A DNA stretch of 32,000 nt from Clostridia bacterium (GCA_030526225.1 JAUNDF010000016.1:1-32000); one strand, 5' to 3'; positions 6,399 through 24,871 are shown, numbered from the stretch's first letter. Notes: generated by a model from the letters alone, not told the origin. Made by a program: numbers and translations.

Positions 6399-7406
6399 TT
6401 ACCGGGTGCTGCCCCGGCGGATGAGGGAACCGGCAAACACGGTGGTCTGCGGTGCCTCCTGCCCGTTCAGGACAGACAGAAGCACGCGGACGGATTCCCG
6501 GCAGATGCTTTGCAGCTTCACATCCACGCTGCTCAGCTCCGGCTCGGTAAACAGGCAGCTGGGGGTGTTGTTGTAGCCGATGATGCTGATGTCTTCGGGG
6601 ATTTTCAGCCCGCGGCTGTTGGCAAACTTGATGGCACCGGCGGCTAATTCATCCTCGGAGGTGAACACGGCATCGAACCGGAGCCCACCGCTGTACAGCT
6701 CCTCCAGCGTATCCCGCACCGCAGGGACGGATACGGCATCCTCGGGGATGAAGCGGATGAGCGCCTCATCGATGGCGATGCCGGCGCGGGTCAGGGCATC
6801 CCTGTAGCCGGCCAGCTTTTTGCGGCCGTTGTGGTTCTGGGAGTGGTACAGGTACAGGATGCGTTGGCAGCCGCTGTCAATCAGTGCCTTCACGGCCTCG
6901 GCGCTGGTGCGCTCCTGATCGCCGATGACGCCGTACACATTCTCCGCAGCCAGCGTGGCATTGAGTATTACAATAGGAAGCTTTTCCGCCGCCTGACGGA
7001 TGTAGGCGTTGTCCTCGTCATTTTCCTCCACAAAGGTGGAGCCCATGAGGATGATGCCGTCCACCTTGCGGCTGACCAGCTGCTCCAGCCCTTCCGCGCG
7101 GCCTGCCAAGGTGCGGCCGCAGCAGGTGAGGAGGCAGTTGTAGTTCTCCGCCCGAAGCTATGACTCCAGAAAGGACAGCGCCCGGGACTGGAAGCTGTCG
7201 GCGGCGTTGGGGCAAAGCAGGCCGATGGTCTGCATGCTGTTCAGACCAAGGCCGCGGGCGAAGGCGTTGGGCACATAGCCGCATTCCTTCATTACCGCCA
7301 GCACACGCTCCCGGGTTTCCTTGCCCACCCGGGGAGAGTTGTTGAGGATGCGGGAAACGGTGGCAATGGAGACGCCGGCTTTTTCGGAAATGTCGTAGAT
7401 GTTCAT
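6399..7406 (-). CDS. LacI-family transcriptional regulator of the hexuronate locus, with one in-frame TAG (a pseudogene under standard code 11)
   Basis: ORFs 7158..7472 and 6399..7109 are in the same frame. The first carries the HTH MNIYDISEKAGVSIATVSRILNN. The second is a periplasmic-binding-protein-like core. They are separated only by TAG at 7158-7160. Read-through gives ...SFLES-TAG-LRAENYNCLLTCCGRTLAGRAEGLEQLVSRKVDGIILMG..., which is collinear with LacI/CcpA/PurR architecture. ATG at 7406 with an AAAGGAG RBS. Final stop is TAA. Confidence 0.85.
7158..7160 (-). other. in-frame TAG codon inside the LacI-family gene
   Basis: Plus strand reads cta, so the minus-strand codon is TAG. The flanking codons on both sides continue the same LacI-family reading frame. 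Confidence 0.95.
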
Positions 7407-7462
7407 GGGCTGGCGGCGGCTCCTTTCGACTGCTTTATCATTGTTTGATAATTGACAGATAA

Positions 7463-7478
7463 ATGTAAACACTTACAT
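7463..7478. promoter_or_regulatory. LacI/CcpA-type operator dyad (cre-like) in the regulator leader
   Basis: ATGTAA-ACAC-TTACAT is a perfect 6-4-6 inverted repeat. The core TGTAAACACTTACA differs from the cre consensus TGWNANCGNTNWCA only at the central G. Confidence 0.5.
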
Positions 7479-7488
7479 ATCCGCATTT

Positions 7489-7517
7489 ATTATACACGAT
7501 AAGCGGGTGCGATGCAA
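7489..7517 (-). promoter_or_regulatory. candidate promoter of the LacI-family gene (minus strand)
   Basis: On the minus strand, TTGCAT (7517-7512), 17-nt spacer, TATAAT (7494-7489). The dyad at 7463-7478 lies just downstream of the predicted start site. Confidence 0.35.
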
Positions 7518-7577
7518 GATGAAAACAGAAAACTTTGGAAAATACGGCAAAAATTTTCCGGAAATCAACAATGGTGA

Positions 7578-7606
7578 TTGACAAACAAACCGGGGGAGAG
7601 TACAAT
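7578..7606 (+). promoter_or_regulatory. sigma-A promoter of uxaB-uxaA-eda-kdgK
   Basis: TTGACA (7578-7583), 17-nt spacer, TACAAT (7601-7606). Confidence 0.6.
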
Positions 7607-7614
7607 GAAAATGT

Positions 7615-7636
7615 GTGTGGTAAAGCACTTACACAC
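7615..7636. promoter_or_regulatory. second cre/LacI-like operator at the uxaB transcription start
   Basis: GTGTGGTAAAGCACTTACACAC shares GTAAA(g)CACTTACA with the 7463-7478 dyad and starts 9 nt after the -10 box. Confidence 0.45.
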
Positions 7637-7678
7637 CATGAAATTCAAAGCTTCCAACCATATTTTAGGAGGATGACC

Positions 7679-9151
7679 ATGGAAAAGATCAACGAAGGCG
7701 GCCGCGCCATTGTCAAGCGCCCGGTCAAGGTACTGCAGTTCGGCGAGGGCAACTTCCTTCGCGCATTTGTCGATTACATGATTGACATTGCCAACGAGAA
7801 GACCGATCTGGATGCCGGCATCGTGCTGGTCAAGCCCATCACCTTCGGCAGCCTGGAGGGCTTCCGCAAGCAGGACAATCTGTATACCGTGATGCTCCGC
7901 GGTCTGGTAGACGGTGTGGCCACCGAGCAGAGCCGCATGATCACCTCCGTGCAGGATACCGTTGATGCCTATGCCGAGTACGAAAAGTACAGCGACTACG
8001 CCAAGCTGGATACCCTGCGCTATATCGTTTCCAACACCACCGAGGCCGGCATTGTGCTGGATGAATCCGACAAGCTGGAGCTGTGCCCGCCCAACACCTA
8101 CCCCGGCAAGCTGTGCAAGTTCCTGTATGAGCGCGCCGAGGCCTTCGACTATGCCGAGGACAAGGGCCTGATTATGCTGCCCGTGGAGCTGATTGACGAC
8201 AACGGCATCAAGCTGAAGGAATGCGTGCTGGCTCTGGCCAAGCTGTGGAACCTGGGCGACAAGTTCATCAACTGGCTCAACACCGCCTGCGTATTCACCT
8301 CCACACTGGTGGACCGCATCGTGACCGGCGCCATCCGCGACGAGAATGAGCGTCAGGCTGCATGGGAAAAGATTGGCTACGAGGACCAGATGCTGGTCAC
8401 CGGCGAGCCCTTCGCCCTGTGGGTCATCGAATCTCCCCGCGACCTGTCCGACGAGCTGCCCCTGCCCCAGTGCGGCCTGCCCGTCATCTACACCGACAAC
8501 CAGAAGCCCTACAAGCAGCGCAAGGTGCGCATCCTCAACGGTGCCCACACCTCCTTCGTGCCCGCTGCCTTCCAGTGCGGCTATGACATCGTGCTCGATG
8601 CCATGCATGACGACCTGATCAAGAACTTCATGCAGAAGACCCTGTATGATGAAGTCATTCCCACCTTGGCCCTGCCCAAGGAAGACCTGATGAGCTTCGC
8701 CGAGGCTGTGACCGGCCGCTTTGAGAATCCCTTCATCAAGCACCGTCTGCTGGATATCTGCCTCAACTCCGTCAGCAAGTGGCGCGCCCGCTGCATGCCC
8801 AGCCTGCTGGGTTATGTGGAAAAGACCGGTGAGCTGCCCGCCCGCCTGACCTTCTCCCTGGCCAGCCTGATGGCCCTGTACCACGGCGGCGAGCTGAAGG
8901 ACGGCGTGCTGGTGTGCAGCCGCAACGGCGAAGCCTACACCCTGAAGGATGATGCCGATGTGCTGGCCTTCTTCGCCGAGGGCAACAGCAAGCCCGCCGA
9001 CGAGCTGGTGCATGCCTTCCTGTCCTCCGAGCATTTCTTCGGCCAGGACCTGACCGCCATCCCCGGTCTGGAGGCTTCCGTGCTGGCCAGCTACAAGGAC
9101 ATCCTCGCCCGCGGTATGAAGGCCGTGATGACCGAAAAGTTCGGAGGCTGA
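7679..9151 (+). CDS. uxaB: tagaturonate reductase (altronate oxidoreductase)
   Basis: Collinear with E. coli UxaB as I recall it: QFGEGNFLRAFVD, SNTTEAGI, STLVDRIVTG, KxRILNGAHT, AVTGRFxNPxIKH, LPARLTF. Start at ATG 7679, 6 nt after AGGAGG. Stop is TGA. Confidence 0.92.
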   Translation: MEKINEGGRAIVKRPVKVLQFGEGNFLRAFVDYMIDIANEKTDLDAGIVLVKPITFGSLEGFRKQDNLYTVMLRGLVDGVATEQSRMITSVQDTVDAYAEYEKYSDYAKLDTLRYIVSNTTEAGIVLDESDKLELCPPNTYPGKLCKFLYERAEAFDYAEDKGLIMLPVELIDDNGIKLKECVLALAKLWNLGDKFINWLNTACVFTSTLVDRIVTGAIRDENERQAAWEKIGYEDQMLVTGEPFALWVIESPRDLSDELPLPQCGLPVIYTDNQKPYKQRKVRILNGAHTSFVPAAFQCGYDIVLDAMHDDLIKNFMQKTLYDEVIPTLALPKEDLMSFAEAVTGRFENPFIKHRLLDICLNSVSKWRARCMPSLLGYVEKTGELPARLTFSLASLMALYHGGELKDGVLVCSRNGEAYTLKDDADVLAFFAEGNSKPADELVHAFLSSEHFFGQDLTAIPGLEASVLASYKDILARGMKAVMTEKFGG

Positions 9152-9152
9152 T

Positions 9153-10634
9153 ATGCGCGACGTGCTGAAAATCAATCCGGCGGATAACGTGGCGGTTTGC
9201 CTGCGTGCCGTATCTGCCGGTGAGGTCCTGACCGTGGACGGCTGCGACATCACTGCCGTGACCGATGTGCCTGCAGGCCACAAGCTGGCTTTGCAGGACA
9301 TCGCCGCCGGCGGCCATGTCGTCAAGTACGGCTATCCCATCGGTGAGGCCAAGTGTGACATTGCCAAAGGCAGCCACATCCATGTGCACAACCTGCACAC
9401 CCTGCTCTCCGGCGAACTGAGCTACGAATACAACCCCACCGGCGTGGATGTGGATGCCATGCCCCACGCCACCTTCATGGGCTATCCCCGCAAGGATGGC
9501 CGGGTGGGTGTGCGCAACGAGCTGTGGATTATGCCCACGGTGGGCTGCGTCAACGACATCGCTCTGGAGCTGGAAAAGGCCGCGCAGGAGCTGGTGGGCG
9601 GCGGCGTGGAGGCCGTGCTTTCCTTCCGCCATCCCTATGGCTGCTCCCAGATGAGCGAGGATCAGGAGAACACCCGCACCATTCTGGGCGACCTGATCAG
9701 CCACCCCAATGCCGGCGCTGTGCTGGTGCTGGGCCTTGGCTGTGAAAACAGCGGCGTGGACATCCTGAAAAACTACATTGCCGAGCCCGACAGCCCCCGC
9801 ATCCGCTATCTGGTATGTCAGGATGTGGAGGATGAAATGGAAGCCGGCATGCAGCTGCTGCGCGAGCTGAAGGCCGAGATGGACGGCGATGTCCGCGTTC
9901 CCTGCGATGCGGATAAGCTGGTCATCGGTCTGAAGTGCGGCGGCAGTGACGGCTTCTCCGGCATCACCGCCAACCCGGTCATCGGTGCATTCTCCGATAT
10001 GCTGGTGGCACAGGGCGGCAGCACCATCCTCACCGAGGTGCCCGAGATGTTCGGTGCTGAAACCATCCTGATGGAGCGCTGCAAGGACGAGGAGACCTTC
10101 CGCAAAACGGTTGCCCTCATCAATGACTTCAAGCAGTATTTCGAGAGCCATCATCAGACGATTTATGAAAATCCCTCTCCCGGCAACAAGGCCGGCGGCA
10201 TCTCCACCCTGGAGGACAAGGCGCTGGGCTGCACCCAGAAGAGCGGCAAGGCCAAGGTCATGGACGTGTTGGCATATGGTCAGCGGGTCACCTGTCCCGG
10301 CCTGAACCTGCTCTCCGCCCCCGGCAACGATCTGGTCGCCTCCACGGCGCTGGCAGCTGCCGGTGCGCAGATTGTGCTCTTCTCCACCGGCCGCGGTACG
10401 CCCTTTGCGTCCCCCGTGCCCACGGTGAAGATTGCCAGCAACACCCCGCTGGCAAAGAAAAAGAGCAACTGGATTGATTTCAATGCCGGCCGTCTGCTGG
10501 AGGACCTGCCCATGGAAGAGGTTGCACAGGGTCTGATGGATCTGGTGCTGGCCGTGGCTTCCGGTGAAGAAGTTTGCTCCGAAAGACGCGGATTCCACGA
10601 TTTGGCTATTTTCAAATCCGGTGTTACGCTGTAA
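9153..10634 (+). CDS. uxaA: altronate dehydratase
   Basis: Strong collinearity with E. coli UxaA as I recall it: VGVRNELWIxPTVGCVN, YGCSQ, HPNAGAVLVxGLGCEN, GGSDGxSGITANP, LTEVPEMFGAE, YENPSPGNKAGGIxTLEDKxLGCTQK, LFSTGRGTP, LAIFKSGVTL. Stop is TAA. Confidence 0.95.
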   Translation: MRDVLKINPADNVAVCLRAVSAGEVLTVDGCDITAVTDVPAGHKLALQDIAAGGHVVKYGYPIGEAKCDIAKGSHIHVHNLHTLLSGELSYEYNPTGVDVDAMPHATFMGYPRKDGRVGVRNELWIMPTVGCVNDIALELEKAAQELVGGGVEAVLSFRHPYGCSQMSEDQENTRTILGDLISHPNAGAVLVLGLGCENSGVDILKNYIAEPDSPRIRYLVCQDVEDEMEAGMQLLRELKAEMDGDVRVPCDADKLVIGLKCGGSDGFSGITANPVIGAFSDMLVAQGGSTILTEVPEMFGAETILMERCKDEETFRKTVALINDFKQYFESHHQTIYENPSPGNKAGGISTLEDKALGCTQKSGKAKVMDVLAYGQRVTCPGLNLLSAPGNDLVASTALAAAGAQIVLFSTGRGTPFASPVPTVKIASNTPLAKKKSNWIDFNAGRLLEDLPMEEVAQGLMDLVLAVASGEEVCSERRGFHDLAIFKSGVTL

Positions 10635-10667
10635 AATAGAGGTATCAAAACAAGGAGGTACAATCCA

Positions 10668-11627
10668 ATGAACGCTGTTCTTGAGCAACTGTCTTTGGCC
10701 GGTCTGGTTCCGGTCATTGCCGTAAATGATGCAAACGATGCTGTGCCGCTGTGCAAGGCTCTGGCCGACGGCGGCCTGCCCGTGGCTGAAATCACCTTCC
10801 GCACCGCCGCTGCCGAGGAGGCCATCCGCCGCGTGCACGAGGAGCTGCCCCATGTGATTCTGGCTGCCGGTACCGTGCTGACCACCGAGCAGGTGGACCG
10901 CGCTGTGGCTGCCGGTGCAGCTGCCATCGTTTCCCCCGGCCTGAACCCCACCGTGGTGAAGTACTGCGTGGAAAAGGGCATCCCCGTATGCCCCGGCACC
11001 GCAAACCCCTCCGACGTGGAAGTGGCCCTGTCCTATGGTCTGGATGCGGTGAAGTTCTTCCCCGCAGAGCAGGCCGGCGGTCTGAAGATGATCAAGGCCA
11101 TGTGCGGCCCCTACACCAGCATGAAGTTCATGCCCACCGGCGGCATTAACGAGAACAACATGCTCGAGTATCTGGCCTTCGACAAGATTCTGTGCTGCGG
11201 CGGCTCCTGGATGGTTCCCAAGGATGCTGTGGAAGCCAAGGACTGGGATCGCATTACCGCCATCACCCGCTCCGCTGTTGCCAAGATGCTGGGCTTTGAG
11301 CTGCGCCATGTGGGCATCAACTCCGCAAACGCTGAGGAGTCCCTGGCCACTGCCAAGCTGCTGGCCAAGCTGATGGGCTGCGAGGTGAAGGAAGGCAATT
11401 CCTCCAACTTCGCCGGCACCGGCTTTGAAGTGATGAAGAGCATTGGCCGCGGCACCCACGGCCACATCGCCATCGCCACCAACTCCGTCAAGCGCGCCAA
11501 GTGGCACCTGGAAAATCAGGGCTACAAGTTCATCGAGGACAGCGCTGTGGTGAAGAACGGCAAGCTGATTGCCATCTATCTGGAAGGCGAAATCGGCGGC
11601 TTTGCTATCCATCTGGTCCAGAAGTAA
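10668..11627 (+). CDS. eda: KDPG/KHG aldolase (Eda) fused to a C-terminal VOC/glyoxalase-like domain
   Basis: Residues 1 to about 205 look like Eda: VPVI, AEITFRT, GTV, VKFFPAE with the Schiff-base Lys, PTGG. Residues from about 210 to 319 (about 11295-11624) form an extra domain with [15 protein letters not shown] and AIHLVQ. AAGGAGG RBS. Stop is TAA. Confidence 0.85.
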
Positions 11628-11638
11628 GCTCACTATTC

Positions 11639-11790: not shown

Positions 11791-12825
11791 ATGGGTAAGA
11801 TTGTTACTTTCGGTGAAATCATGCTGCGCCTGAAGAGCCCCGCTTTCGAGCGCTTCTTCCAGTCCCCCTCCCTTGAAGCCACCTTCGGCGGCGGCGAGGC
11901 CAATGTGAGCGTTTCTCTGGCCAACTACGGTCTGGATACCGCTTTCGTCACCGTGCTGCCCAAGAACGATGTGGGCGAGGCCTGCCTGCGTGAGCTGCGC
12001 GGCTTCGGCGTGGATGTTTCCAACATCGTGCGCAAGGACGGCCGTATGGGCATCTACTTCCTGGAGACCGGTGCTGTGCAGCGCCCCTCCAAGGTCATCT
12101 ACGACCGTGCCGGCTCTGCCATCTGCGAAGCCAAGCCCGGCGACATTGACTGGGACAAGGTGTTCGAGGGCGCTACCTGGTTCCACCTGACCGGCATCAC
12201 CCCTGCCATCAGCCAGGGCGCTGCCGACCTGAGCCTGGAAGCTGTGAAGAAGGCCAAGGAAAAGGGCATCCATGTGTCCTGCGACCTGAACTACCGCAAG
12301 AACCTGTGGAAGTACGGCAAGACCGCCGATCAGGTGATGACCGAGCTGGTGAAGTACGTTGATACCGTTATCGCCAACGAGGAAGACTTCCAGAAGTCCC
12401 TGCTGCTGAAGGCCGAAAGCACCTCCGACGTGGAAGCCGGCGAGCTGAACGTGGAGCAGTACAAGGCCATCGCCAGCCTGGCCATGGAGACCTATCCCAA
12501 CATCAAGCGCGTGGCCATCACCCTGCGCGAGAGCAAGAGCGCTACCCACAACGACTGGCGCGCCTGCCTGTACAACGGCAAGGATTTCTTCCTGTCCCGC
12601 AAGTACTCCATCACCGACATCGTTGACCGCGTTGGCGGCGGCGACTCCTTCGGCGGCGGCCTGATCTACGGCCTGAACACCTACGACGATGAGCAGACCG
12701 CTCTGGAGTTCGCCGTGGCTGCTTCCTGCCTGAAGCACACCATCATCGGTGACTACAACCGCGTGACCGTATCCGAGGTCGAGAGCCTGATGAAGGGCTC
12801 CGGCAACGGCCGTGTGCAGCGCTGA
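11791..12825 (+). CDS. kdgK: 2-dehydro-3-deoxygluconokinase (PfkB family)
   Basis: Start at ATG 11791 ([14 protein letters not shown]). PfkB motifs GGGEANV and [16 protein letters not shown]. The gene sits with eda, uxaA and uxaB. The upstream in-frame extension to 11569 overlaps eda and the palindromic spacer. Stop is TGA. Confidence 0.9.
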
Positions 12826-12840
12826 TCTGCCAATTGCACA

Positions 12841-12877
12841 GCACCCCTTCCGCAGCGATGCGGGAGGGGTGCTTTTT
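12841..12877 (+). terminator. Rho-independent terminator of the hexuronate operon
   Basis: GCACCCCTTCCGC pairs with GCGGGAGGGGTGC (13 bp, one G-U), followed by TTTTT. Confidence 0.8.
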
Positions 12878-13051
12878 GCTTTGTATGCTTTTTGCACAAA
12901 TATCCACAGACTGCATAAACATAAAAACGAATGAAAAGTTATCCTTGCAGGGGAAATCCAGCTGAAATGCATGAGAATTACCAATCGGGTAAATTATGGG
13001 CAAGAAAATCACAAATTTGAAAGAGATTATGCAGCAAACCATCAAATCAGC

Positions 13052-13105
13052 CGAAAATGAACTGAAAATGAACCGTAAATGAACAAAAATTCACAAAAAT
13101 GAAGG
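13052..13105. repeat. five phased 11-bp tandem repeats (A-tract array)
   Basis: GAAAATGAAC at 13053 and 13064, GTAAATGAAC at 13075, then AAAAATTCAC and AAAAATGAAG. All repeat with an exact 11-bp period. Confidence 0.7.
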
Positions 13106-13206
13106 AATCAAAAACAAAATCACAGATTTTGCATGGAAATAATTGTTTTTTAAGTGTTTTTTGAATCGAAATTGCATTATTTGTCAAAAAATATTCAATT
13201 TCAGGG

Positions 13207-13234
13207 TTGACATATACCATAAGGCTGGTATAAT
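13207..13234 (+). promoter_or_regulatory. near-consensus sigma-A promoter of the amino-acid ABC operon
   Basis: TTGACA (13207-13212), 16-nt spacer ending TGG (extended -10), TATAAT (13229-13234). Confidence 0.65.
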
Positions 13235-13294
13235 GATATACATAAACAAACAATTCACCGCAGCAAAGCGGCGGAAAAAGGAGGAACCCATCTT

Positions 13295-15584: not shown

Positions 15585-16748
15585 TTACCACCCAATCTCC
15601 ACCGCTTCCGCAGGGACATACCCGCGGAGGGTGCCGGATTGAACGAGGATTTTGTCGGGGTAAATCAGCTGCATGCCGTTTTCGGTGTAGCGCCAGCTGC
15701 TGCGGGGGCGGCTGCCGATGACCTCGGGCTTGTCACCGGGGTACAGACTGCCGATGATGTTGCCCTCGCCGTCGGTTACGGTGCAGGCGGTTCTGATGGA
15801 GCGCTCGCTCAGGTCGGAAAACTGCGGCTCACCGCCCAGTCCCTCCAAAAGCATGTAGCCGTACTGGCCGTCTTTGGCGGCCACATGAGCCCACATGCCG
15901 GTGGTGCCGAGGATTTCCACGCCGTCACCGGGATTGTATTGTCCCACCAGCTGGGAGGTCTTGTCAGGCAGCTGCCGCAGATTCAGGGGAGACCGCAGTG
16001 CGGCGGCCGGAGGCCATGCCTCGAAAATATCGGTGTCATCTGCCGGGACAAGGTACTCGGTTTTCATGTAGCCTGCCACGCCGCCGATGACCACATGGGT
16101 CCATTCGCCGTGGCCGGTGCCGCAGAAAAGCCGGTTGGCGACTGCGCCGCTGTAATACCGACCCAGCACGGTGCTGTCCTTGGTGGGGGCGGCGCGCAGG
16201 TTCAGCCGGAGAGTTGTGTTGCTGCCCATCACATACATCTGCCAGTCCTTTTCCCTGCGCAGGGCGGTGACAGGCACAAAGCCGGTGGTGCTGTCGGGCA
16301 GGAGCACCAGCAGCCAGGCATCATCCTCTGTCATGGCCAGCACACGCAGCGCAAGCCCTGCTTCAAGAGAGGCAAAGGGGGCATCATCCGAAGTAGCGCG
16401 GTATACCGGCTGATACCGCACAGCCCCTACATCCCACACTCGGGCAGGGGTGCCGGTTTCGTCATAGGCGAAGGCACCGTCGTTTTCAGCCAGCAAATCG
16501 GTTTCCTTCAGCCAGCCCTGAAGCCCGCCGCAATCCGCCAGCACATAGCCGCTGCCCCGGTCCAGCACCGACAGGGACACATGGCCGAAGAACCGGGCGA
16601 TGACAGGGGAGCCGTCCGAGGGGGCGGTGTACATGTCAATGGCGGGAGCTTCCTCCGTGCAGGCAATGGTGACGCAAAGGCTGTCCTCTGCCAAAGATGC
16701 GGGCATCAGGCACAAAAGGAGCAGCAGAACCAACAGCAATCGCTTCAT
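15585..16748 (-). CDS. secreted protein with about five bacterial SH3 (SH3b)-like repeats
   Basis: Start at ATG 16748 (MKRLLLVLLLLLCLMPASLA signal peptide, GGGAGGGA RBS). Repeated modules such as LNLRAAPTKDSTVLGRYYSG...WTHV..GGVAGYMKTEYL and LNLRQLPDKTSQLVGQYNPGDGVEILG..GMWAHV...GYML. Stop is TAA. Confidence 0.7.
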   Translation of the reverse strand: MKRLLLVLLLLLCLMPASLAEDSLCVTIACTEEAPAIDMYTAPSDGSPVIARFFGHVSLSVLDRGSGYVLADCGGLQGWLKETDLLAENDGAFAYDETGTPARVWDVGAVRYQPVYRATSDDAPFASLEAGLALRVLAMTEDDAWLLVLLPDSTTGFVPVTALRREKDWQMYVMGSNTTLRLNLRAAPTKDSTVLGRYYSGAVANRLFCGTGHGEWTHVVIGGVAGYMKTEYLVPADDTDIFEAWPPAAALRSPLNLRQLPDKTSQLVGQYNPGDGVEILGTTGMWAHVAAKDGQYGYMLLEGLGGEPQFSDLSERSIRTACTVTDGEGNIIGSLYPGDKPEVIGSRPRSSWRYTENGMQLIYPDKILVQSGTLRGYVPAEAVEIGW

Positions 16749-16761
16749 GCATTCCCTCCCG

Positions 16762-17511
16762 TTAATCATCCAGAATCAGGGTGCCGTCCTGCTGTGCTTC
16801 GGAAAGGGCGGCGGACAAATCAGCCATCAGCTCCTCGCGGCTCAGGGGCGGCTGATGCCCGGGGACGACCACGTCAAAATCCAGCAGACGAAGCTCTGCC
16901 AGCAGTGCTTCAAACCGGCGGCGATGGTAGCATTCGGGCTTGTGGTGCAGATCCTCGTAGGTGATGTCACCCAGATACAGCACCCTTTCCTCGGGGATGT
17001 ACACCACGGTGCAGTCATCCGCGTGGCTGTTTTCCAGGTGCATCAGCTCCGCGTGAACGCCGCCCAGGTCCAGCGTCAGGGAGCCGCTGAACACCACATC
17101 GCAGGGCCGCACCCGGATGGCCTGCGGATCGGGGTATTCCGCCAGAATATGCTCGTGGCAGAAGAGGATATCCTCGCCGGATACCACCCGCTGCTCCATG
17201 GCGGGCAAATCCCAGTGCCAGCGGCTCATGGCCTGAAGGTGTCGCTGTGTGTTTTCACAGCAGACGGCAGGGATATCCGCCGCGCACAGACCATAGGTGT
17301 GGTCCCAGTGGCTGTGGGTGATGGCCACCATCCCCGGCGCGAGCAGGCTGCCCAGCGAATCGCGGAAGGCCGCCAAATGCGCCGGGCTGTTGCCGGCATC
17401 GATTTGCAGGGACATTCTGTCGCCGCGCACATAGCCAAGGGCGGGGCGGTCGGTTGCCTGCTATGGCAGGGCGGCGTAGCAGCGGCCGGTCAGCTGATGC
17501 AGCTTCATCAT
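16762..17511 (-). CDS. MBL-fold metallo-hydrolase with one in-frame TAG (a pseudogene under standard code 11)
   Basis: GGAGGT RBS, then ATG ATG at 17511/17508. Translation reads MMKLHQLTGRCYAALP-TAG-QATDRPALGYVRGDRMSLQIDAGNSP...ITHSHWDH (HxHxDH). The TAG at 17461-17463 is in the same frame as ORF 16762..17430. Final stop is TAA. Confidence 0.8.
17461..17463 (-). other. in-frame TAG codon inside the MBL-fold hydrolase gene
   Basis: It is 16 codons after an RBS-preceded ATG and 11 codons before the ORF-track start. It lies in the same frame as the HxHxDH-containing ORF. Confidence 0.9.
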
Positions 17512-17523
17512 GTACCTCCTATG

Positions 17524-17550
17524 AAAAAAGCCGTCTTCCACAAGACGGCT
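17524..17550 (-). terminator. Rho-independent terminator after the 183-aa gene (minus strand)
   Basis: On the minus strand, AGCCGTCTT-gtgg-AAGACGGCT followed by TTTTTT. Confidence 0.75.
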
Positions 17551-18249: not shown

Positions 18250-18252
18250 TAT

Positions 18253-18392
18253 CAGCAGTACAGAAAAGAGAGGGGGAGACTGCTGCATGCTGCGCAAACA
18301 TACACGGCGGCAGAATAAAGCAGTTTCTTTCGCGACCCTTTTATGACAGCATATGACCGACCGCCCCTGTATGAGGCAGCCGGTCTTTTTTT
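18253..18392 (+). promoter_or_regulatory. structured 5' leader with intrinsic terminator (candidate attenuator or riboswitch, class unknown)
   Basis: The 5' hairpin is CAGCAGT (18253-18259) paired with ACTGCTG (18279-18285), with a purine-rich loop acagaaaAGAGAGGgggag. The terminator is GACCGACCGCC (18355-18365) paired with GGCAGCCGGTC (18375-18385), with 2 mismatches, plus T7 (18386-18392). It abuts the AGGAGG RBS. Confidence 0.5.
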
Positions 18393-18403
18393 AGGAGGCA
18401 TGC

Positions 18404-19501
18404 ATGATGGATTGGCAGAATGTGATGATTAGCCCCGAATTTTGCGATCAGGGCGTGGATTGCTACCGGCTGACCGGCGCGGATTTTATCAACCGCTACT
18501 ACATCGTATCCGAGGCGGAGACCCGCAAGCTGATGAACTTCCCCGAGGTGGTGGGCTATGAGGTATACACCTCCCTGATTAACGCCACCTCCCAGATGAT
18601 GTATCACCTCAAGGAGCAGGGGGAGATTACCAACGCCAACATCCTGTCCATCCTGCGGGGTGCGCTGAACTATCCCCTGGAGGAGAGCTGCTACCGGGAG
18701 CATATCCGGGTGCATGACATCAGCTTCCTGTCCAGCGAGCGCGTGTTTGATGACAAGGGCACCATGACGGGGCTTGAAATCAAGTACAGCAAGCTGGCGG
18801 TGGTCAACAACAGCACATTGCTCATCGGCGACATCATCGCCTCCGGCGAAACGCTGGTAAAGTGCCTGCAGTATGTGATTGATTATTACAAGGCCAAGAA
18901 CGCCCGGCTGCGGAACATCGTGTTCTTCACCATCGGTGCGCGCAAGGGCATTGATCTGCTGGAGAAGCTCACCGAGGACATCCGCAAAGAATGGCCGGAG
19001 TTTGAGGGCTTCATCACCGTGTTCTACGAGGGCATCTTCTCCTGCTATGAGGAGGGCAACAAGGGCGTATCCGGCATCAACCGCGCCAATGTGGACTTCT
19101 ACTGGAAGGGCGGCATCGTGGCCCCTGCCTTCCGCCGCCAGACGCTGTCCATGCAGAACCCCCTGTTTGAAAAGTGCACCATCTATGACGGCGGTGCACG
19201 GCGCTATGAAATCCACGAGCATATTAATGAGGTGCTGGAGTTCTGGATGGGCATTGCCGAGCGCAGCCATCAAATCGACAAAAATGCATTGCTGGAGGAA
19301 AAGCTGGGCCATCCCGCGGATATCTCCTATGAGGACTGGCTGAAGGACTGCCACTACGGTCTGCTGGACCCCCGGAAGACCCGCTGGCTGTACCAGCAGG
19401 AGCGCGGCTTTGTGGCCAGCCTGCAGGATGTATCCCTGGAGGAAATCGCCCGCCAGCGCATCAACGAATTCAAAAACACCCTGCGCAAGTACATTGTGTA
19501 A
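18404..19501 (+). CDS. uracil-PRTase-like phosphoribosyltransferase with a long C-terminal extension
   Basis: ILSILRGAL (compare UPRT ILRAGL) and the PRPP-binding loop TLLIGDIIASGETL fall within the first roughly 200 aa. The last roughly 160 aa have no counterpart in the canonical UPRT of about 210 aa. AGGAGG RBS. Stop is TAA. Confidence 0.6.
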   Translation: MMDWQNVMISPEFCDQGVDCYRLTGADFINRYYIVSEAETRKLMNFPEVVGYEVYTSLINATSQMMYHLKEQGEITNANILSILRGALNYPLEESCYREHIRVHDISFLSSERVFDDKGTMTGLEIKYSKLAVVNNSTLLIGDIIASGETLVKCLQYVIDYYKAKNARLRNIVFFTIGARKGIDLLEKLTEDIRKEWPEFEGFITVFYEGIFSCYEEGNKGVSGINRANVDFYWKGGIVAPAFRRQTLSMQNPLFEKCTIYDGGARRYEIHEHINEVLEFWMGIAERSHQIDKNALLEEKLGHPADISYEDWLKDCHYGLLDPRKTRWLYQQERGFVASLQDVSLEEIARQRINEFKNTLRKYIV

Positions 19502-19568
19502 GGCTTGAGCAAACGCGAGTGCAAAACAATTCTCTGAATCAAAAACAGAAAAGGACAGGTGATTCCCG

Positions 19569-20819
19569 ATGGAAAAGCAAACAACCGTCACCGCGGACAT
19601 TGACTTTGCGGAGGCCGCGGTCCCGCAGTCAAGCCGGCGCAGCGTACTGACCATGTTCATGATTATGCTGGGCTTTACCTTCTTCTCCGCCAGCATGTGG
19701 ACCGGCCAGCAGCTGGCTGATAGCCTTGACTTCGGCGGCTTTGTGAAGGCGCTGCTGCTGGGCGGCCTGATTCTGGGCGCATACACCGGCGCCCTGGGCT
19801 ATGTGGGCGCCCGCACCGGCATGAGCCTTGATCTGCTGTCCCGCAAGGCATTCGGCAGCAAGGGCTCCTATCTGCCCTCTGCCATGATCAGCTTTACGCA
19901 GATTGGCTGGTTCGGCGTTGGTCTGGCCATGTTCGCCATCCCCATTGCCGATGAACTGCTGGGCGGCAACCCCGTGGCCAAGTGGGGCCTGATTATCATA
20001 GCCGGTGTGCTGATGACCGCCTCCGCCTACTTCGGCATCAAATCCCTGACCATCATCAGTTATATCGCCGTGCCCTGTGTGGCCATTCTGGGCGTGGTGG
20101 CTGTGGTGCTGGCTGTGCAGCGCGGTGACGGCACCTTTTTGGAAAACTTCTCCCGTGCCAGCGGCGGTCTGACGGTCATCGGCGGTGCCGGTCTGGTTGT
20201 GGGCTCCTTCGTATCCGGCGGCACGGCAACCCCCAACTTTACCCGCTTTGCCAAGAACGGTGCCGTGGGTGCCATCACCACCGTGGTGGCCTTCTTCATT
20301 GGTAACTCCCTGATGTTCCTGTTCGGCGCCATTGCCTCCATCTATGTACCCGAAGGCGCCCGCAATGACATCTTTGAGGTGATGATTCGTCTGGGCATGT
20401 TCGTCCCCGCCATCATCGTGCTGGGCCTGAACATCTGGACCACCAATGACAACGCCTTGTATTCCGCAGGCCTTGGTCTGGCCAACATCTTCTCCCAGAA
20501 GAAAAAGCCCATGGTGCTGATTTCCGGCATCATCGGCACAGCACTGGCCGACTGGCTGTACTGGAACTTCTGCGGCTGGCTGAACATCCTCAACTGCACC
20601 CTGCCGCCCGTGGGCATCATTCTGGTGCTGGGCTACTTCCTCAACAAAAAGGATTACGACACCGTGAAGACCGCCCGCACGGTCAACTGGTTTGCCGTCA
20701 TCGGTGTGGTGCTGGGCGCTGTGGTGGCCAATGTGGTCGCCTGGGGCATCCCCTCCATCAACGGCATGGCGGTGGCCGCCGTGTGCTACCTCATCGGCTA
20801 CGCAGCGGAAAAGAAGTAA
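19569..20819 (+). CDS. NCS1-family nucleobase (cytosine/purine/uracil/thiamine-precursor type) permease
   Basis: 416 aa with about 12 predicted TM segments, a CodB/CytX-like profile, and position directly downstream of the PRT-like gene. The exact start codon is uncertain. Stop is TAA. Confidence 0.75.
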   Translation: MEKQTTVTADIDFAEAAVPQSSRRSVLTMFMIMLGFTFFSASMWTGQQLADSLDFGGFVKALLLGGLILGAYTGALGYVGARTGMSLDLLSRKAFGSKGSYLPSAMISFTQIGWFGVGLAMFAIPIADELLGGNPVAKWGLIIIAGVLMTASAYFGIKSLTIISYIAVPCVAILGVVAVVLAVQRGDGTFLENFSRASGGLTVIGGAGLVVGSFVSGGTATPNFTRFAKNGAVGAITTVVAFFIGNSLMFLFGAIASIYVPEGARNDIFEVMIRLGMFVPAIIVLGLNIWTTNDNALYSAGLGLANIFSQKKKPMVLISGIIGTALADWLYWNFCGWLNILNCTLPPVGIILVLGYFLNKKDYDTVKTARTVNWFAVIGVVLGAVVANVVAWGIPSINGMAVAAVCYLIGYAAEKK

Positions 20820-20828
20820 TATGAATAA

Positions 20829-20868
20829 ATCCGCAGACAACGATTGTGCTGTCTGCGGATTATTTTTT
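20829..20868. terminator. bidirectional terminator between the NCS1 gene and recO
   Basis: ATCCGCAGAC (20829-20838) pairs with GTCTGCGGAT (20851-20860), flanked by AAA and TATTTTTT. Confidence 0.75.
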
Positions 20869-21595
20869 ATTCCTTCGGGAGCATTTCACTGCCCTTGATG
20901 GGTCTGCCCACGTTCTGCTGTACGTAATCCTTCAGCAGGGTGAAGGGGGCGTATTGCTCCGGGGTGTTGACCCAGCCGGAGGCAGGGGAGGTGAGGGCAT
21001 GGCGCATCCATTTGGCCTGCTCTGCCGCCAGGGGAACGCTGCCGGGTCGGCGGCAGGCTTTGCAGGCAAGGCCGCCCTCCTGCAAATCAAAGGAGACGGG
21101 CTCGTCCTCCGTCAGGCGTTTGCCGCAGGAAACGCAGTGGTTCAGCCGGGGCTTGAAGCCCTCGATGGCGGCAAAGTTGAGCAGGAACCCGGCCAGCAGG
21201 GGCTTCCATTCCTGGGGGGAAAAGGTCAGGCGGCTGAGGGTGTGCAGCAGCAGCATAAACAGCTGCTGGGCCGGTTCGCCGGGCTGAATCACCGCCTCAC
21301 AGCAGCCGAGCAGATACACCCCGCAGGTCAGGCGGTCATAATCACTGCGCAGGGGATAAAAGGTCTCGATGGGGTGGGCGGCGGTCAGGGTCAGGCGGCC
21401 GGATTTTTCATACACCTCAAAATCCGCCAGGGCAAACAGGTCGCTGACGCTCAAAAGCGGCGACTTGGGTCTGCGGCATCCACGGGCCAGCACCTCCATG
21501 CGCCCGCGGGTGGGGCTGAGGAGTGTCAGCATGCGGTCGTTGTCCCGGTAGTTGGCATAGCGCAGCACAATGGCGGTTTGCTCGGTTTGCTGCAT
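20867..21595 (-). CDS. recO: DNA repair protein RecO
   Basis: Start at ATG 21595 (MQQTEQTAIVLRYANYRDNDRMLTLLS), with GGGAGG upstream. N-terminal OB fold, then a zinc-finger-like CVSCGK...CKAC. 242 aa. The ORF-track 5' extension overlaps tcdA. Stop is TAA. Confidence 0.88.
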   Translation of the reverse strand: MQQTEQTAIVLRYANYRDNDRMLTLLSPTRGRMEVLARGCRRPKSPLLSVSDLFALADFEVYEKSGRLTLTAAHPIETFYPLRSDYDRLTCGVYLLGCCEAVIQPGEPAQQLFMLLLHTLSRLTFSPQEWKPLLAGFLLNFAAIEGFKPRLNHCVSCGKRLTEDEPVSFDLQEGGLACKACRRPGSVPLAAEQAKWMRHALTSPASGWVNTPEQYAPFTLLKDYVQQNVGRPIKGSEMLPKE

Positions 21596-21600
21596 GGCAA

Positions 21601-22332
21601 TCAACCTCCCGTGATGGTCTTCACCACATCCGAGGCGATGATCAGCCCCATGACCGAGGGCACGAAGGAGGTGCTTCCGGGGATGCCCCGGCGCTTGGCG
21701 CGCTCCTCCTCGGTCAGGCAGCGGAGGATGTCCTCCTCTGCGGCGCGGACAGCCGGCTCGGTGGAATACGCCACCCGCAGATGCTTCACGCCCCGCTTGC
21801 GAAGCTCTGTGCGCATCACCTTGGCAAGGGGACAGATCTCCGTCTTGTAGATGTCCGTCAGCACGATTTTCGTCGGGTCCAGCTTGTTGCCGGCACCCAT
21901 GGCGCTGATGAGCGGCACGCCCAGCGCTTCGCACCGCACAGCCAGATTGATTTTGGCCGATACGGTGTCAATGGCATCCACCACAAAATCATACCGGGAC
22001 AGGTCCACGGAATCGGCGTTTTCGGGCAGATAGAACATCTCATGGGGGATGATGTTCGCTTCGGGGTTGATATCCAGCAGGCGGTCACGCATCACCTGCA
22101 CCTTGCTTTGCCCAAGGGTGGAGTGCAGGGCGATAATCTGCCGGTTCAGGTTGGTCAGGGAAACGGTGTCGTTGTCAAACAAATCCATGCTGCCGACACC
22201 TGCGCGGATGAGTGCCTCGGCGGTAAAGCCGCCCACACCGCCCACGCCGAACACGGCCACGCGGGCCTTGTACAGCCTGTCCATGGCGGCTTCGCCCAGC
22301 AGAAGCTCGGTTCTGGAAAACTGATGAATCAT
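21601..22332 (-). CDS. tcdA: tRNA threonylcarbamoyladenosine dehydratase (ThiF/E1-like, TcdA/CsdL type)
   Basis: FSRTELLLG, Rossmann motif VFGVGGVGG, SNLNRQ-like TNLNRQ, and a length of 243 aa typical of TcdA. Stop is TGA. Confidence 0.8.
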   Translation of the reverse strand: MIHQFSRTELLLGEAAMDRLYKARVAVFGVGGVGGFTAEALIRAGVGSMDLFDNDTVSLTNLNRQIIALHSTLGQSKVQVMRDRLLDINPEANIIPHEMFYLPENADSVDLSRYDFVVDAIDTVSAKINLAVRCEALGVPLISAMGAGNKLDPTKIVLTDIYKTEICPLAKVMRTELRKRGVKHLRVAYSTEPAVRAAEEDILRCLTEEERAKRRGIPGSTSFVPSVMGLIIASDVVKTITGG

Positions 22333-22341
22333 GTGTATCCC

Positions 22342-22845
22342 TCAATCCAATGTTTTCTTGTAGTAAATGCGGTCGCGGCCGTCATAGGCGGGCTTGATGC
22401 ACACCCGCTTGTACCCGGCCTTTTCCACGGCGGCATAGCTGGGCACGTTCTCGGGGTCCACGGTGCAGTACAGGGCGGTGCAGCCGTTTTGGCGGGCAAC
22501 CTCATCCCAGTGGCGCAGGAAGAAGGACTGAATGCCACGGCGGCGGTAGTCGGGGCCTACCATCACATCACGGTAATCCAGCGTATGGGCAGGGTCTTCG
22601 CCCAGCTTGGCGGCATAGCTGATGTCCGGGGCCTGTTCGCCGAAGCTGGCTAAGGCAAAGGCGGCCAGGGTATCGCCGTCAAAGGCGCCGATGGACAGAT
22701 GATTTTCGATATCATGGCGGAATTCATCCTCCGTACTGCCGAAGTACCAGCGGGGGTTGGGCAGGTGGGCAAAGATGCATGTCTGCATGGCCATCACGGC
22801 GGGCAGGTCGGCTGTGGTCAGGGGACGGAAGGTCAGGCTGTTCAT
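22342..22845 (-). CDS. GNAT-family N-acetyltransferase
   Basis: Start at ATG 22845 (MNSLTFRPLTTADL). Acetyl-CoA motif VGPDYRRRGIQSFFL. 167 aa. Stop is TGA, 10 nt before the tcdA start. Confidence 0.8.
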   Translation of the reverse strand: MNSLTFRPLTTADLPAVMAMQTCIFAHLPNPRWYFGSTEDEFRHDIENHLSIGAFDGDTLAAFALASFGEQAPDISYAAKLGEDPAHTLDYRDVMVGPDYRRRGIQSFFLRHWDEVARQNGCTALYCTVDPENVPSYAAVEKAGYKRVCIKPAYDGRDRIYYKKTLD

Positions 22846-22878
22846 GGCAAAACACCTCGTGTTCGTTGAATTTGTTTC

Positions 22879-22908
22879 TTGACAACCCGTGCGGGGAACA
22901 GGTACAAT
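22879..22908 (+). promoter_or_regulatory. candidate promoter of the HAD hydrolase gene
   Basis: TTGACA (22879-22884), 18-nt spacer, TACAAT (22903-22908). Confidence 0.5.
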
Positions 22909-22937
22909 CCTGATTACATCATCACCGGGGAGGAATA

Positions 22938-23579
22938 ATGAAGATGACCACCGTATTGTGGGACTGGAACGGAACACTGCTGGAGGATACGGAGCTGTCC
23001 GTATCACTGCTGAACGATTCGCTGGTGCAGTATGGCTATCCCACCGTCACGGTGGAGGAATACCGGAAGGTTTTCGGCTTTCCCATCCGGAAATATTATG
23101 AAGCGTTGGGCGTGACCGATGAGGACTTTGACCCCATGGCGGTCATGTGGGCTGACGGCTACGCCGAGGGCTGGCATGACTGTGAACTGCAGCATCAGGC
23201 GGCGGAAACGGTCCGGCGCTTCCGGGAGGCGGGGCTGAAGCAGGTCATCATCAGCGCCTCCAAGCTGGAGGTGCTGAAGGCGCAGGTGGCGGCCTATCCC
23301 GCGCTGGACGGCATGTTTGACGACATCCTCGGGCTCAACGACATCTACGCTCACAGCAAGGTGCAGCTGGGGCTGGACTATCTGCACCAGTCCGGCATCG
23401 ACCCGAAGGACTGTGTGTTCCTTGGGGACACCACCCATGATGCCGAGGTGGCTGCGGCCATCGGCTGCCGGTGCATCCTCGTTTCCGGCGGTCATCAGGC
23501 GGATGAGGTGCTGCGCTCCGCCGGGGTGGAGGTTGCATCCAGCCTGCGCCATGCCGCAGAAATGATGGGGATTGCATAA
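22938..23579 (+). CDS. HAD-superfamily hydrolase (phosphoglycolate-phosphatase-like subfamily IA)
   Basis: Motif I VLWDWNGTL (DxN instead of DxD), motif II IISAS, motif III Lys, motif IV FLGDTTHD. GGAGGA RBS. Stop is TAA. Confidence 0.8.
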   Translation: MKMTTVLWDWNGTLLEDTELSVSLLNDSLVQYGYPTVTVEEYRKVFGFPIRKYYEALGVTDEDFDPMAVMWADGYAEGWHDCELQHQAAETVRRFREAGLKQVIISASKLEVLKAQVAAYPALDGMFDDILGLNDIYAHSKVQLGLDYLHQSGIDPKDCVFLGDTTHDAEVAAAIGCRCILVSGGHQADEVLRSAGVEVASSLRHAAEMMGIA

Positions 23580-23623
23580 AGCCTCCGGATGAAAACCGAT
23601 TGTATTGCTGCGTGTACTCCTTC

Positions 23624-23688
23624 CGTCGGCTTCGCCGATAGCTCCCTCCCCGAGGGAGCTGTCAGCTTTAGCTGACTGAGGGAGTTTT
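23624..23688. repeat. cluster of adjacent palindromes, probably a bidirectional terminator or REP-like element
   Basis: TCGGC-ttc-GCCGA, then AGCTCCCTC-ccc-GAGGGAGCT (23640-23660), then GTCAGC-ttta-GCTGAC (23661-23676), then GAGGGAG TTTT. Confidence 0.5.
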
Positions 23689-23854
23689 ATTTCTGATGAC
23701 GGCTGCGCCAGCACTTGAGCGCCCATTCGGCCAGGGCCACGGCGATGACGTAGAGGGGAATCATCAGGTAGGGGTTCATGTTTTTGCCGCCGAAAACCAG
23801 CATCTGCAGGGCAAAGGCAATGCCCACAAACAGCAGGGTGAAAACAATGCGCAT
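23687..23854 (-). CDS. small hydrophobic protein (55 aa, two predicted TM helices), absent from the ORF track
   Basis: My own translation is MRIVFTLLFVGIAFALQMLVFGGKNMNPYLMIPLYVIAVALAEWALKCWRSRHQK. GAAGGAAG lies upstream of ATG 23854. Stop is TAA at 23687-23689, followed by hairpins. Confidence 0.5.
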   Translation of the reverse strand: MRIVFTLLFVGIAFALQMLVFGGKNMNPYLMIPLYVIAVALAEWALKCWRSRHQK

Positions 23855-23908
23855 AGGCTTCTTCCTTCTTTATTAATCATATTCAGCGTGCGGCGAAACG
23901 GCAGGGAA

Positions 23909-24799
23909 TCAGGCCTGCGTCTGTTCGGCCAGCTGCCGCAGGAGATCGATGATTTCGTGCATCACCGGGGTCAGGTAGTGGCTTTTGCGCCACACGATAT
24001 ACGTATCCCGCACAAAGCCGGGCGCATCAATGGGCCGGGTGGCTACCATGCCCTGCGCGGCCTCCACACTCACCACGCGCTCCGGCAGAATGGAAGCACC
24101 CGCCTGCCGGGCCACGGCATGGATGATGTAATGCACGCTGGTGCTTTCCACCAGCGGGGTGATGTCAACCCCGGCCAGCGCCAGGGCATCATCCACAATC
24201 ATCCGGTTGGCAGAGCCGGGCTCCCGGGCAAAAAAGGGCATGGCGGTCAGGTCCTGCAGGGAGACCTGCTCCTTTTCCGTCAGGGGATGCTTGGGCGGCA
24301 GCACGGCCACGAACCGGTCACTGCCCAGATGGCGGCAGGAGAACAGCTCATGCTCCGGCGCGCTGCCCATGAGAGCGATGTCCAGCTCGTTGTCCATCAG
24401 CATTCTGTTCAGCTGATTGGAGGGCGCAACCCGCGCCAGAATGTTCATCTCGGGATAGCGGGCCTTCAGCTGGGCGATGAGGGAGGGCAGCACCTGCTCG
24501 CTGTTGGAGTAGTTGGTGCCGATGACCAGCCGGTGGTGGTCATTCCAGCGGTGCATGTCCCGCTATAGCAGGTCAAATTCCGAAACAAGCCGCGCGGCGC
24601 GCTCGGAGAAGATGTGCCCGCATTCGGTCAGCTTCAGCCGCTGATTATCCCGCTCGAACAGGCGCAGGTGGTAATAATCCTCCATCTCCCGGATGGCCCG
24701 GGATACGGCAGGCTGGGTCATGTGCAGCGCTTCGGCCGCCCGGGTGGCACTGCCCTGGCGGCATACCTCGGTGAATATCCGCAAATGCTTGATGGTCAT
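23909..24799 (-). CDS. LysR-family transcriptional regulator with one in-frame TAG (a pseudogene under standard code 11)
   Basis: ORF 24563..24811 carries the HTH MTIKHLRIFTEVCRQGSATRAAEALHMTQPAVSRAIREME. ORF 23909..24556 is the LysR substrate-binding domain. Both are in the same frame, joined as ...SEFDLL-TAG-RDMHRWNDHHRLVIGTNYS... ATG at 24799 with a GAGGAAG RBS. Final stop is TGA. Confidence 0.85.
24563..24565 (-). other. in-frame TAG codon inside the LysR-family gene
   Basis: Plus strand reads cta. The codon lies in the linker between the HTH and the effector domain, and the frame is preserved on both sides. Confidence 0.95.
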
Positions 24800-24871
24800 G
24801 GGCTTCCTCACAGGTTATACCAGATTTGTTATGAACAAGTCTATTATAGCATTTTACAGACAGGATATCAA

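Follow-up and report, generated by a model that had tools for sequence, protein, structure and literature searches.

Among bacteria, the natural reassignments of a stop codon to an amino acid known in the literature concern UGA only. Sense decoding of UAG has been reported in three settings: as pyrrolysine (Pyl) in a few bacterial enzymes, in recoded phages, and in the archaeal Code 34, a genome-wide conversion of UAG to Pyl that was stated not to have been observed in bacteria (Kivenson et al., bioRxiv 10.1101/2024.09.30.615893). The stretch of DNA analyzed here, 32,000 nucleotides from an uncultured gut Clostridia bacterium (the window hereafter), resembles each of the known systems in part. 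Three intact-looking genes in it, encoding a LacI-family regulator, an MBL-fold hydrolase, and a LysR-family regulator, are each interrupted by one in-frame TAG. Their rate, their surroundings, and the residues that homologs carry at the same positions raise the possibility that UAG is read through or decoded at these sites.

A close parallel is Code 34, where TAG likewise occurs in frame in ordinary intact genes and seldom or never serves as a terminator. In Code 34 organisms, gene calling with table 11 gives no loss of coding density, which makes the code easy to miss, and the same holds for the present case. Unlike the archaeal system, which depends on pylTSBCD and inserts Pyl, the window has aligned columns that point to glutamate (Glu), no pyl genes in view, and a hairpin around the codon. 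The TAG-to-glutamine (Gln) recoding of crAss-like and other phages (genetic code 15) is similar in that amber would serve as an amino acid codon in the bacterial cytoplasm through a tRNA with a CUA anticodon. In those phages, however, the recoded genes are phage genes, mostly late ones, the residue is Gln, and the suppressor tRNAs are phage-borne, whereas the window has chromosomal housekeeping-type genes and columns from which Gln is nearly absent.

Amber suppressor strains of the supE/supF type also display a TAG-specific tolerance that concerns mainly dispensable genes, and in them TAG can stay a terminator elsewhere. Such suppressors have been described in laboratory strains and in some natural enterobacteria and are not known in Clostridia. 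The window sites differ in having a hairpin and a fixed nucleotide immediately before the codon (position -1), for which suppressors have no known requirement. The selenocysteine (Sec) insertion element SECIS, acting on UGA, and the proposed PYLIS, acting on UAG for Pyl, share with the window a local mRNA stem-loop beside an in-frame stop in an intact gene. Those elements lie 3′ of the codon and persist while it is decoded in the ribosomal A site, whereas here the codon itself forms part of the loop and stem. None of these archaeal, phage, suppressor, or SECIS/PYLIS analogues matches in full. Ordinary amber pseudogenes are a further comparison, as they too have a single premature TAG per dispensable gene, and TAG is the commonest nonsense outcome for the codon usage of the window. 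Unlike such pseudogenes, the three genes occur at a density far above that of relatives, show no visible decay, have two-nucleotide changes that yield a rare codon, and share one hairpin register.

Three genes with one in-frame TAG each

All three genes lie on the minus strand. The LacI-family regulator (6399-7409, 335 codons) is located beside the hexuronate genes uxaC, uxaB, and uxaA, and its sole lesion is a TAG at codon 83 (7158-7160, context GAG TCA TAG CTT). The MBL-fold hydrolase gene (16762-17508, 248 codons) has a strong Shine-Dalgarno sequence, an ATG start, a THSHWDH motif, and one TAG at codon 16 (17461-17463, context CTG CCA TAG CAG). In the LysR-family regulator (23909-24799, 296 codons) the sole lesion is a TAG at codon 79, in the linker helix (24563-24565), where the context CTG CTA TAG CGG includes the perfect palindrome GCTATAGC. 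A preliminary description of this DNA had located one TAG in each gene at these coordinates, and translation of the minus strand agrees. The same description held that the family architecture is collinear across each TAG and that the genes lack frameshifts, in-frame TAA or TGA codons, and decayed starts or ribosome-binding sites. These claims are borne out by the Pfam domains (LacI, Peripla_BP_1, and Peripla_BP_3 in the LacI gene, the first being its helix-turn-helix (HTH) domain; Lactamase_B in the MBL gene; HTH_1 and LysR_substrate in the LysR gene), by the absence of frameshifts and in-frame TAA or TGA from all 28 genes curated in the window, and by the retained start codons and Shine-Dalgarno sequences.

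The LacI gene aligns end to end with 119 homologs, the number aligned for each of the three genes, and keeps every family-invariant residue. The 15 residues that precede the TAG in the MBL gene match the N-termini of its homologs. The best full-length homologs of the LysR regulator are ~40-42% identical. Among 5.8 billion proteins, no homolog of this regulator exceeds ~42% identity, and the protein departs from its nearest family at many near-invariant positions, on either side of the TAG. The stop of the MBL gene overlaps the start of a downstream SH3-domain gene (15585-16769) at 16762-16769; if translation stopped at MBL codon 16, any coupling of the two genes at the level of translation would be lost.

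In the NCBI record, the open reading frames (ORFs) after the TAGs are deposited as separate proteins (MDO4483554.1, MDO4483564.1, and MDO4483573.1). Because annotation pipelines silently split such genes in this manner, TAG-split genes are invisible to screens based on coding density. Three Logan contigs from run SRR24915835 (L001, L085, and L086; 7.1 kb in total) match the window letter for letter along their whole length and between them span all three TAGs. The Logan contigs run through the sites without a break, and the assembly accordingly offers no alternative allele at any of them. All three TAGs are real and fixed in the DNA of this organism.

The rate of interruption was compared with that in 80 related loci, which comprise 1.3 Mb and ~970 called genes; a gene was counted as TAG-split in these relatives if the TAG had coding signal on both sides. 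The window has 3 TAG-interrupted genes among 28, against none among the ~970 of the relatives (Fisher P = 2e-5 for 3/28 vs 0/968), and the LacI ortholog is uninterrupted in 80/80 relatives. Substitutions unique to the window LacI number 10, against 20 in a 73%-identical relative, and after the TAG the counts are 8 and 19. The MBL gene has ~21 window-unique substitutions, compared with ~16 in relatives. By this relative-rate test, which covers these two genes, neither LacI nor MBL appears to be under relaxed selection. Ordinary nonsense pseudogenes would be expected at a frequency matching related genomes and with relaxed selection or further lesions. The observed frequency does not match, and the LacI and MBL genes have neither of the other two features. 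For the LysR gene the relative-rate test is uninformative, as this divergent family member has no close homolog (at most 42% identity). A mutator might also be sought in the deviation load at conserved columns of neighboring genes, but the organism is an outgroup to all relatives, which confounds that test.

The columns of the alignments that correspond to the TAGs favor an acidic residue in one gene and vary in the other two. The LysR column contains E in 111, D in 7, and K in 1 of the 119 homologs. In the LacI column A (67), S (32), E (9), and D (6) prevail, and in the closest homolog, at 73% identity, a GAA codon for Glu stands there. The MBL column contains D (57), S (23), N (18), and E (16), in an N-terminal alignment that is uncertain by one residue. 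The product of the column frequencies peaks at Glu, ~7x above Asp and at least 45x above any other residue. Gln, Lys, Trp, Tyr, and Leu are essentially missing: Gln appears in none of the sequences at two columns and once at the third, Trp has a count of zero at all three, and the Glu, Asp, Ala, and Ser that fill the columns give no hint of a Lys-like residue. Glu is the best-fitting residue, and all three columns are compatible with it. The preliminary description had placed the sites at poorly conserved linker positions and concluded that the amino acid could not be inferred. The first statement applies to the variable LacI and MBL columns and fails for LysR, with its 111 Glu among 119 homologs; as to the second, Glu is the residue that the column frequencies favor. 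An alignment with Glu would fit a TAG read as Glu and also a nonsense mutation from GAG to TAG.

Stop-codon usage contributes less. The preliminary description counted 17 TAA, 12 TGA, and no TAG among the terminators of 29 core genes, and the 28 curated genes give 16, 12, and 0. The count stands; as evidence it amounts to no more than chance for the clade. The 968 terminators of the 80 related loci are divided into 483 TAA, 411 TGA, and 74 TAG, a TAG share of 7.6% overall and of ~5% in GC-matched loci, and the probability of finding none among 28 is P = 0.11 at the former value and ~0.25 at the latter. The absence of TAG terminators is compatible with TAG decoding, as weak support. The restriction of the lesions to TAG, without TAA or TGA, had also been put forward as an argument, which fails since codon usage predicts it. 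Under the codon usage of the window, TAG is the outcome of 62% of single-step nonsense paths, or of 75% if only transitions are counted, and three TAGs in three nonsense events would arise by chance with P ~0.24-0.42. GAG is the source of 26% of TAG paths in general and of ~95% under a G:C-to-T:A spectrum. A plus-strand ORF that ends in TAG (20846-21850) was dismissed as spurious, since it is antisense to recO.

The preceding codon and a shared hairpin

The codons that precede the three TAGs are TCA, CCA, and CTA, which occur 6, 1, and 2 times, respectively, in the 9378 codons of the window genes. The CCA of the MBL gene is the only one among 348 Pro codons, and CTA is found twice among ~950 Leu codons. 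When a four-box Ser, Pro, or Leu codon (YYN) stands before TAC or TAT, it ends in A in 0/34 cases, and of the GAG codons only 19/403 follow an A. The context shared by the sites consists of a rare NNA codon before the TAG and a C after it. Because rare A-ending codons precede the TAGs, any likely ancestor of each site would have differed from it by two neighboring nucleotides, a double change that random recent G-to-T hits would not give. Ordinary nonsense pseudogenes are expected to have their lesions in random positions and contexts; here the -1 codons are among the rarest in the window, and the sites have a hairpin register in common.

Two tetranucleotides that contain TAG are avoided in this DNA. 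CTAG is absent from the window, against 32.6 expected under a second-order Markov model, and TTAG/CTAA is depleted (12 vs 39 expected); the same avoidance is found in the 1.3 Mb of relatives. None of the TAA terminators in the window is preceded by C, compared with 7/12 of the TGA terminators. The lack of C or T before TAG follows from the avoidance of CTAG and TTAG. A general k-mer effect was considered for the A_TAG_C context and rejected, as this avoidance leaves the presence of A instead of G and the rare YYA codons unexplained.

At each site the mRNA can be folded into a hairpin in which the last two nucleotides of the -1 codon and the U and A of the stop codon form a YAUA loop, with the G of the stop codon opening the 3′ arm. 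A stem of at least 5 bp was taken as the criterion. The LacI hairpin (7151-7170, minus, sense strand), UCUGGAGU-[CAUA]-GCUUCGGG with the loop in brackets, has a stem of 8 bp, of which 4 are G.U, and a dG of ~-7.2 kcal/mol. The MBL hairpin (17457-17470, minus, sense strand), CCUGC-[CAUA]-GCAGG, has 5 Watson-Crick pairs and a dG of ~-7.4 kcal/mol, and the LysR hairpin (24559-24572, minus, sense strand), CCUGC-[UAUA]-GCGGG, has 5 pairs including one G.U and a dG of ~-7.2 kcal/mol. Two of the three stems rely on G.U pairs, and for this reason the hairpin exists only on the sense strand at those two sites.

The register is rare elsewhere. The background rate of stems this long (at least 5 bp) in the same register is 1.0% over codon sites and 1.5% over GAG codons, and the probability that three random sites share one register, summed over 108 registers, is P = 8e-5. 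The hairpin surrounds 7 of the 217 TAG trinucleotides of the window, the three in-frame ones among them, compared with 0/107 in frame among the hairpin-TAGs in the 1.3 Mb of relatives. The hairpin is found at none of the 74 genuine TAG terminators of relatives and at ~1% of TAA terminators, and it was rejected on these counts as a general property of terminators. The 225 sense-strand hairpins of the window have no excess of AT among their loop dinucleotides. Other A|T codon junctions lie inside such hairpins at the background rate (2/112), and these two, at 9816-9819 (uxaA codon 221, GTA TGT) and 23536-23539 (codon 200 of the HAD gene, GCA TCC), have the tetraloop, a stem of at least 5 bp, and the register of the TAG sites.

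Several mechanisms that might have produced or used these structures were considered and set aside. Blind mutagenesis toward AT in hairpin loops would be expected to leave ~4 missense A|T junctions per nonsense codon, and only the background number was found. Templated mutation from quasi-palindromes or repeats is disfavored, since no repeat covers the changed bases and perfected palindromes would not yield AT. Avoidance of PstI- or SfcI-like restriction sites is not apparent, with 32 occurrences of CTGCAG against 31.6 expected. Translational bypass of the type found in T4 gene 60 has no matching landing codon, and homology resumes directly after the TAG. Separately, the GGAGG Shine-Dalgarno sequences of the MBL gene (17515-17533) and of an orphan gene at 18404-19501 (18383-18401) each have a U-rich tract as pairing partner, giving the hairpins UUUUU-CAUA-GGAGG and CUUUU-UUUA-GGAGG, each in the register of the TAG sites and each with an out-of-frame UAG.

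Proposed decoding of UAG and its rivals

Random recent nonsense mutation is a poor fit to the rate, the two-nucleotide changes, the shared structure, and the lack of decay, and the three TAGs are not random recent nonsense hits. The reading tentatively preferred here, held with rather less than even confidence, is that UAG in the YAUA-hairpin context may not simply end translation and may be read through or decoded at a useful level. Decoding could proceed by an amber-decoding tRNA, by weakened action of release factor 1 (RF1), or by both, with Glu as the residue that best fits the homolog columns, and the LacI, MBL, and LysR proteins would stay functional. Since a hairpin cannot exist while its own codon is in the ribosomal A site, the structure, if relevant, would have to act before decoding or mark a permissive context. 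Translation of the TAG codons, the inserted residue, and any role of the hairpin are inferences. Decoding of UAG would explain the intactness of the genes, the fit to Glu, the missing TAG terminators, and the context. A more specific version, that UAG is read as an amino acid, most consistent with Glu, either genome-wide (with RF1 lost or weakened and a CUA-anticodon tRNA) or in hairpins only, is possible and is put forward with correspondingly greater reserve. The proposal of decoding or suppression in the preliminary description thus retains the excess rate, the lack of decay, the Glu fit, and the shared context in its favor, and loses most of the weight of its terminator and TAG-only arguments.

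Several observations weigh against decoding. The literature up to 2026 contains no report of genome-wide UAG sense decoding in any bacterium. Within the window, ARAGORN found zero tRNA genes, and neither pyl genes nor the release factor genes prfA and prfB are among the genes present; of the last two, it is the absence of prfA from view that counts here. The genes with TAG are all non-essential, two regulators and one hydrolase, and provide only three codons; no TAG has been found in SMC, RecO, Pst, or the Uxa enzymes. None of the ~650 other Glu codons, ~170 of them in SMC, is TAG. An orphan 101-residue ORF on the minus strand (31586-31891) ends in TAG, although it lies in the low-GC mobile end of the window and has no family support. 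The assignment of Glu leans on one strong column, that of LysR, with the other two variable and the MBL alignment possibly off by one residue. Both the -1 A and the hairpin were noticed post hoc, from the data themselves. Decoding requires a role for a hairpin that cannot persist while its own codon is decoded. Nor does a 3′ element of the SECIS or PYLIS type accompany the codons: the hairpin includes the codon, and the 120 nt downstream of each TAG fold no better than shuffled sequence (z = +0.7, 0.0, and -1.1, not significant). The inner stem of the LacI hairpin consists of conserved Leu-Glu and Leu/Phe-Arg codons and reaches at least 6 bp in 9/75 relatives that have sense codons in the loop. 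This hairpin is accordingly older than its TAG, and its stem is partly an ancestral by-product of conserved codons. We know of no recoding signal in which the stop codon is inside the hairpin.

Under the standard code, the three genes could be ordinary nonsense alleles, non-essential genes that were knocked out or cut down to DNA-binding heads too recently to have decayed. This is a serious alternative, to which we would give an appreciable chance, though one short of even. The cause could be a mutator lineage with a substitution bias, adaptive loss of regulators, or structure-associated mutation on lagging-strand genes. Such alleles would need no new code, and several features would follow without effort: TAG is the product of 62-75% of single-step nonsense paths, and a G:C-to-T:A spectrum that draws ~95% of new TAGs from GAG would align them with Glu without recoding. 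The three genes are all dispensable and include two of the four regulators in the window, and all of them lie on the minority strand (P = 0.04). The lack of TAG terminators (0/28) is not significant, the window holds no decoding machinery, and UAG sense decoding has no bacterial precedent. Knock-out leaves unexplained, however, a rate ~100x that of relatives, the doublet changes, and an association of the hairpin with nonsense codons only. The lesions include no frameshifts and no TAA or TGA, LacI and MBL appear free of relaxed selection, and each site would require two adjacent changes that yield the rarest codons of the window. One hairpin register at all three sites (8e-5) is not expected of such alleles either, blind loop mutation should have left ~4 missense A|T junctions for each nonsense codon where only background is seen, and no templating repeat lies near the sites.

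The remaining explanations are less probable. Programmed truncation or gene fission under the standard code, improbable though worth stating, would yield short HTH-only proteins, with the downstream parts made by termination and reinitiation and the hairpin tuning the coupling. LacI and LysR regulators reduced to their HTH heads can bind DNA, and the gene callers of NCBI and Logan report two separate proteins per gene. The LysR gene has an ATG 6 nt past the TAG (TAG CGG GAC ATG), right after the hairpin, and it is for LysR only that truncation with reinitiation is plausible. The first start after the TAG in LacI, by contrast, is a TTG 16 codons downstream. In MBL the first ATG, at which the annotated product P0241 starts, comes 16 codons after the TAG, and both of these starts lack a Shine-Dalgarno sequence. 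Conservation extends to residues that separate the TAG from these later starts, such as Y89, C91, L93, and C95 of LacI, a 15-residue MBL head has no plausible function, and genuine terminators lack this hairpin (0/74 TAG, ~1% of TAA). Editing or modification of a UAG presented in the hairpin, for instance A-to-I conversion by a TadA-like deaminase of widened specificity to give UIG read as Trp, is very unlikely. The G.U pairs needed at two of the three sites would suit RNA rather than duplex DNA, and bacterial TadA edits adenosines in stem-loops of mRNA, with a target range that is widened in some Firmicutes (PMC11472039). The mRNA motifs of TadA are UACG and UAAG in a 7-nt anticodon-like loop (PMC11472039), whereas the sites here read YAUAGC, with UAGC in a 4-nt loop for which no fold resembling an anticodon arm could be drawn by inspection, and none of the three homolog columns contains Trp. 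Equally unlikely is an artefact of sequencing, assembly, or library preparation arising at palindromic sites. All evidence derives from one sequencing run, and the sites are at the center of near-palindromes, a context that produces low-frequency library artefacts. Two independent assemblers nevertheless agree exactly over the 7.1 kb, the Logan contigs are unbroken at the sites, and errors of low allele fraction would not have reached the consensus three times, always as an in-frame TAG.

The locus and the possible meaning of its TAGs

The organism is Christensenellales-like, and the window covers nearly all of a 32,214-bp NCBI contig of its metagenome-assembled genome (MAG). The GC content of the window is ~0.58, with ~0.8 at third codon positions (GC3). 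The 28 curated genes include smc and mrp; the hexuronate group uxaC, lacI, uxaB, uxaA, kdgA, and kdgK; amino-acid ABC transporter genes; the genes for the SH3-domain protein and the MBL hydrolase; two orphan genes and a cytosine permease gene; recO, a thiF-like gene, and genes for GNAT and HAD proteins; lysR; a gene for a C_GCAxxG/FMN_bind protein; pstSCAB-phoU; and araC. No mtt, mtb, or mtm genes are among them, and an Rfam scan of the window returned zero matches. The nearest genomes are MAGs of Christensenellales type (Ca. Limiplasma, CAG-74, and Aristaeellaceae), in which LacI is at most 62% identical, and one unbinned relative has the LacI that is 73% identical to that of the window. The loci with the TAG genes keep conserved synteny with relatives. 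In the 73%-identical relative (Logan contigs L002-L004), lacI is followed only by a 40-residue UxaC remnant (1324-1446) and then by an ABC permease gene; with only this remnant left, the uxa locus is rearranged or decayed there.

The 2-keto-3-deoxygluconate (KDG) kinase gene (11791-12825) is 87-90% identical to the orthologs of relatives, compared with 58-79% for the neighboring uxaA, uxaB, uxaC, kdgA, and lacI. This suggests either a recent transfer or unusually strong conservation of that gene alone. The amino-acid ABC transporter genes are preceded by 469 bp of AT-rich intergenic DNA (12826-13294), which contains no convincing ORF and gave no match in Rfam. Codon-pair bias is strong throughout the window (e.g., 6399-7409 and 18404-19501), and the disfavored Val codon GTA stands mostly before codons that start with T or A; the window has 12 instances of GTA TCC, and the pairs GTA AAG and GTA ACC are frequent. 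The right end of the window (31000-32000) has a low GC content (0.47) and resembles a mobile-element junction, which is probably the reason that the contig ends there. Two copies of a 127-nt direct repeat (31028-31154 and 31224-31350) are found there, with 82% identity; they overlap two apparent C-terminal fragments of recombinase-like proteins, recognized by eye and without family match. An apparent C-terminal fragment of RelE/ParE type (31894-32000) was likewise recognized by eye and has no family match.

Were the three genes pseudogenes, known mutation processes would not account for the strict combination of TAG, hairpin register, and two-nucleotide change, and a mechanism of mutation or selection specific to the structure would be indicated. 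If instead UAG is decoded in this organism, it would be the first natural amber sense-decoding other than Pyl in a cellular bacterium, and a restriction of decoding to hairpins would in addition constitute a new kind of cis context for stop-codon recoding. A UAG read as Glu would amount to a new genetic code, in natural life with little or no RF1 function, and would offer a possible source of an orthogonal amber-decoding pair.

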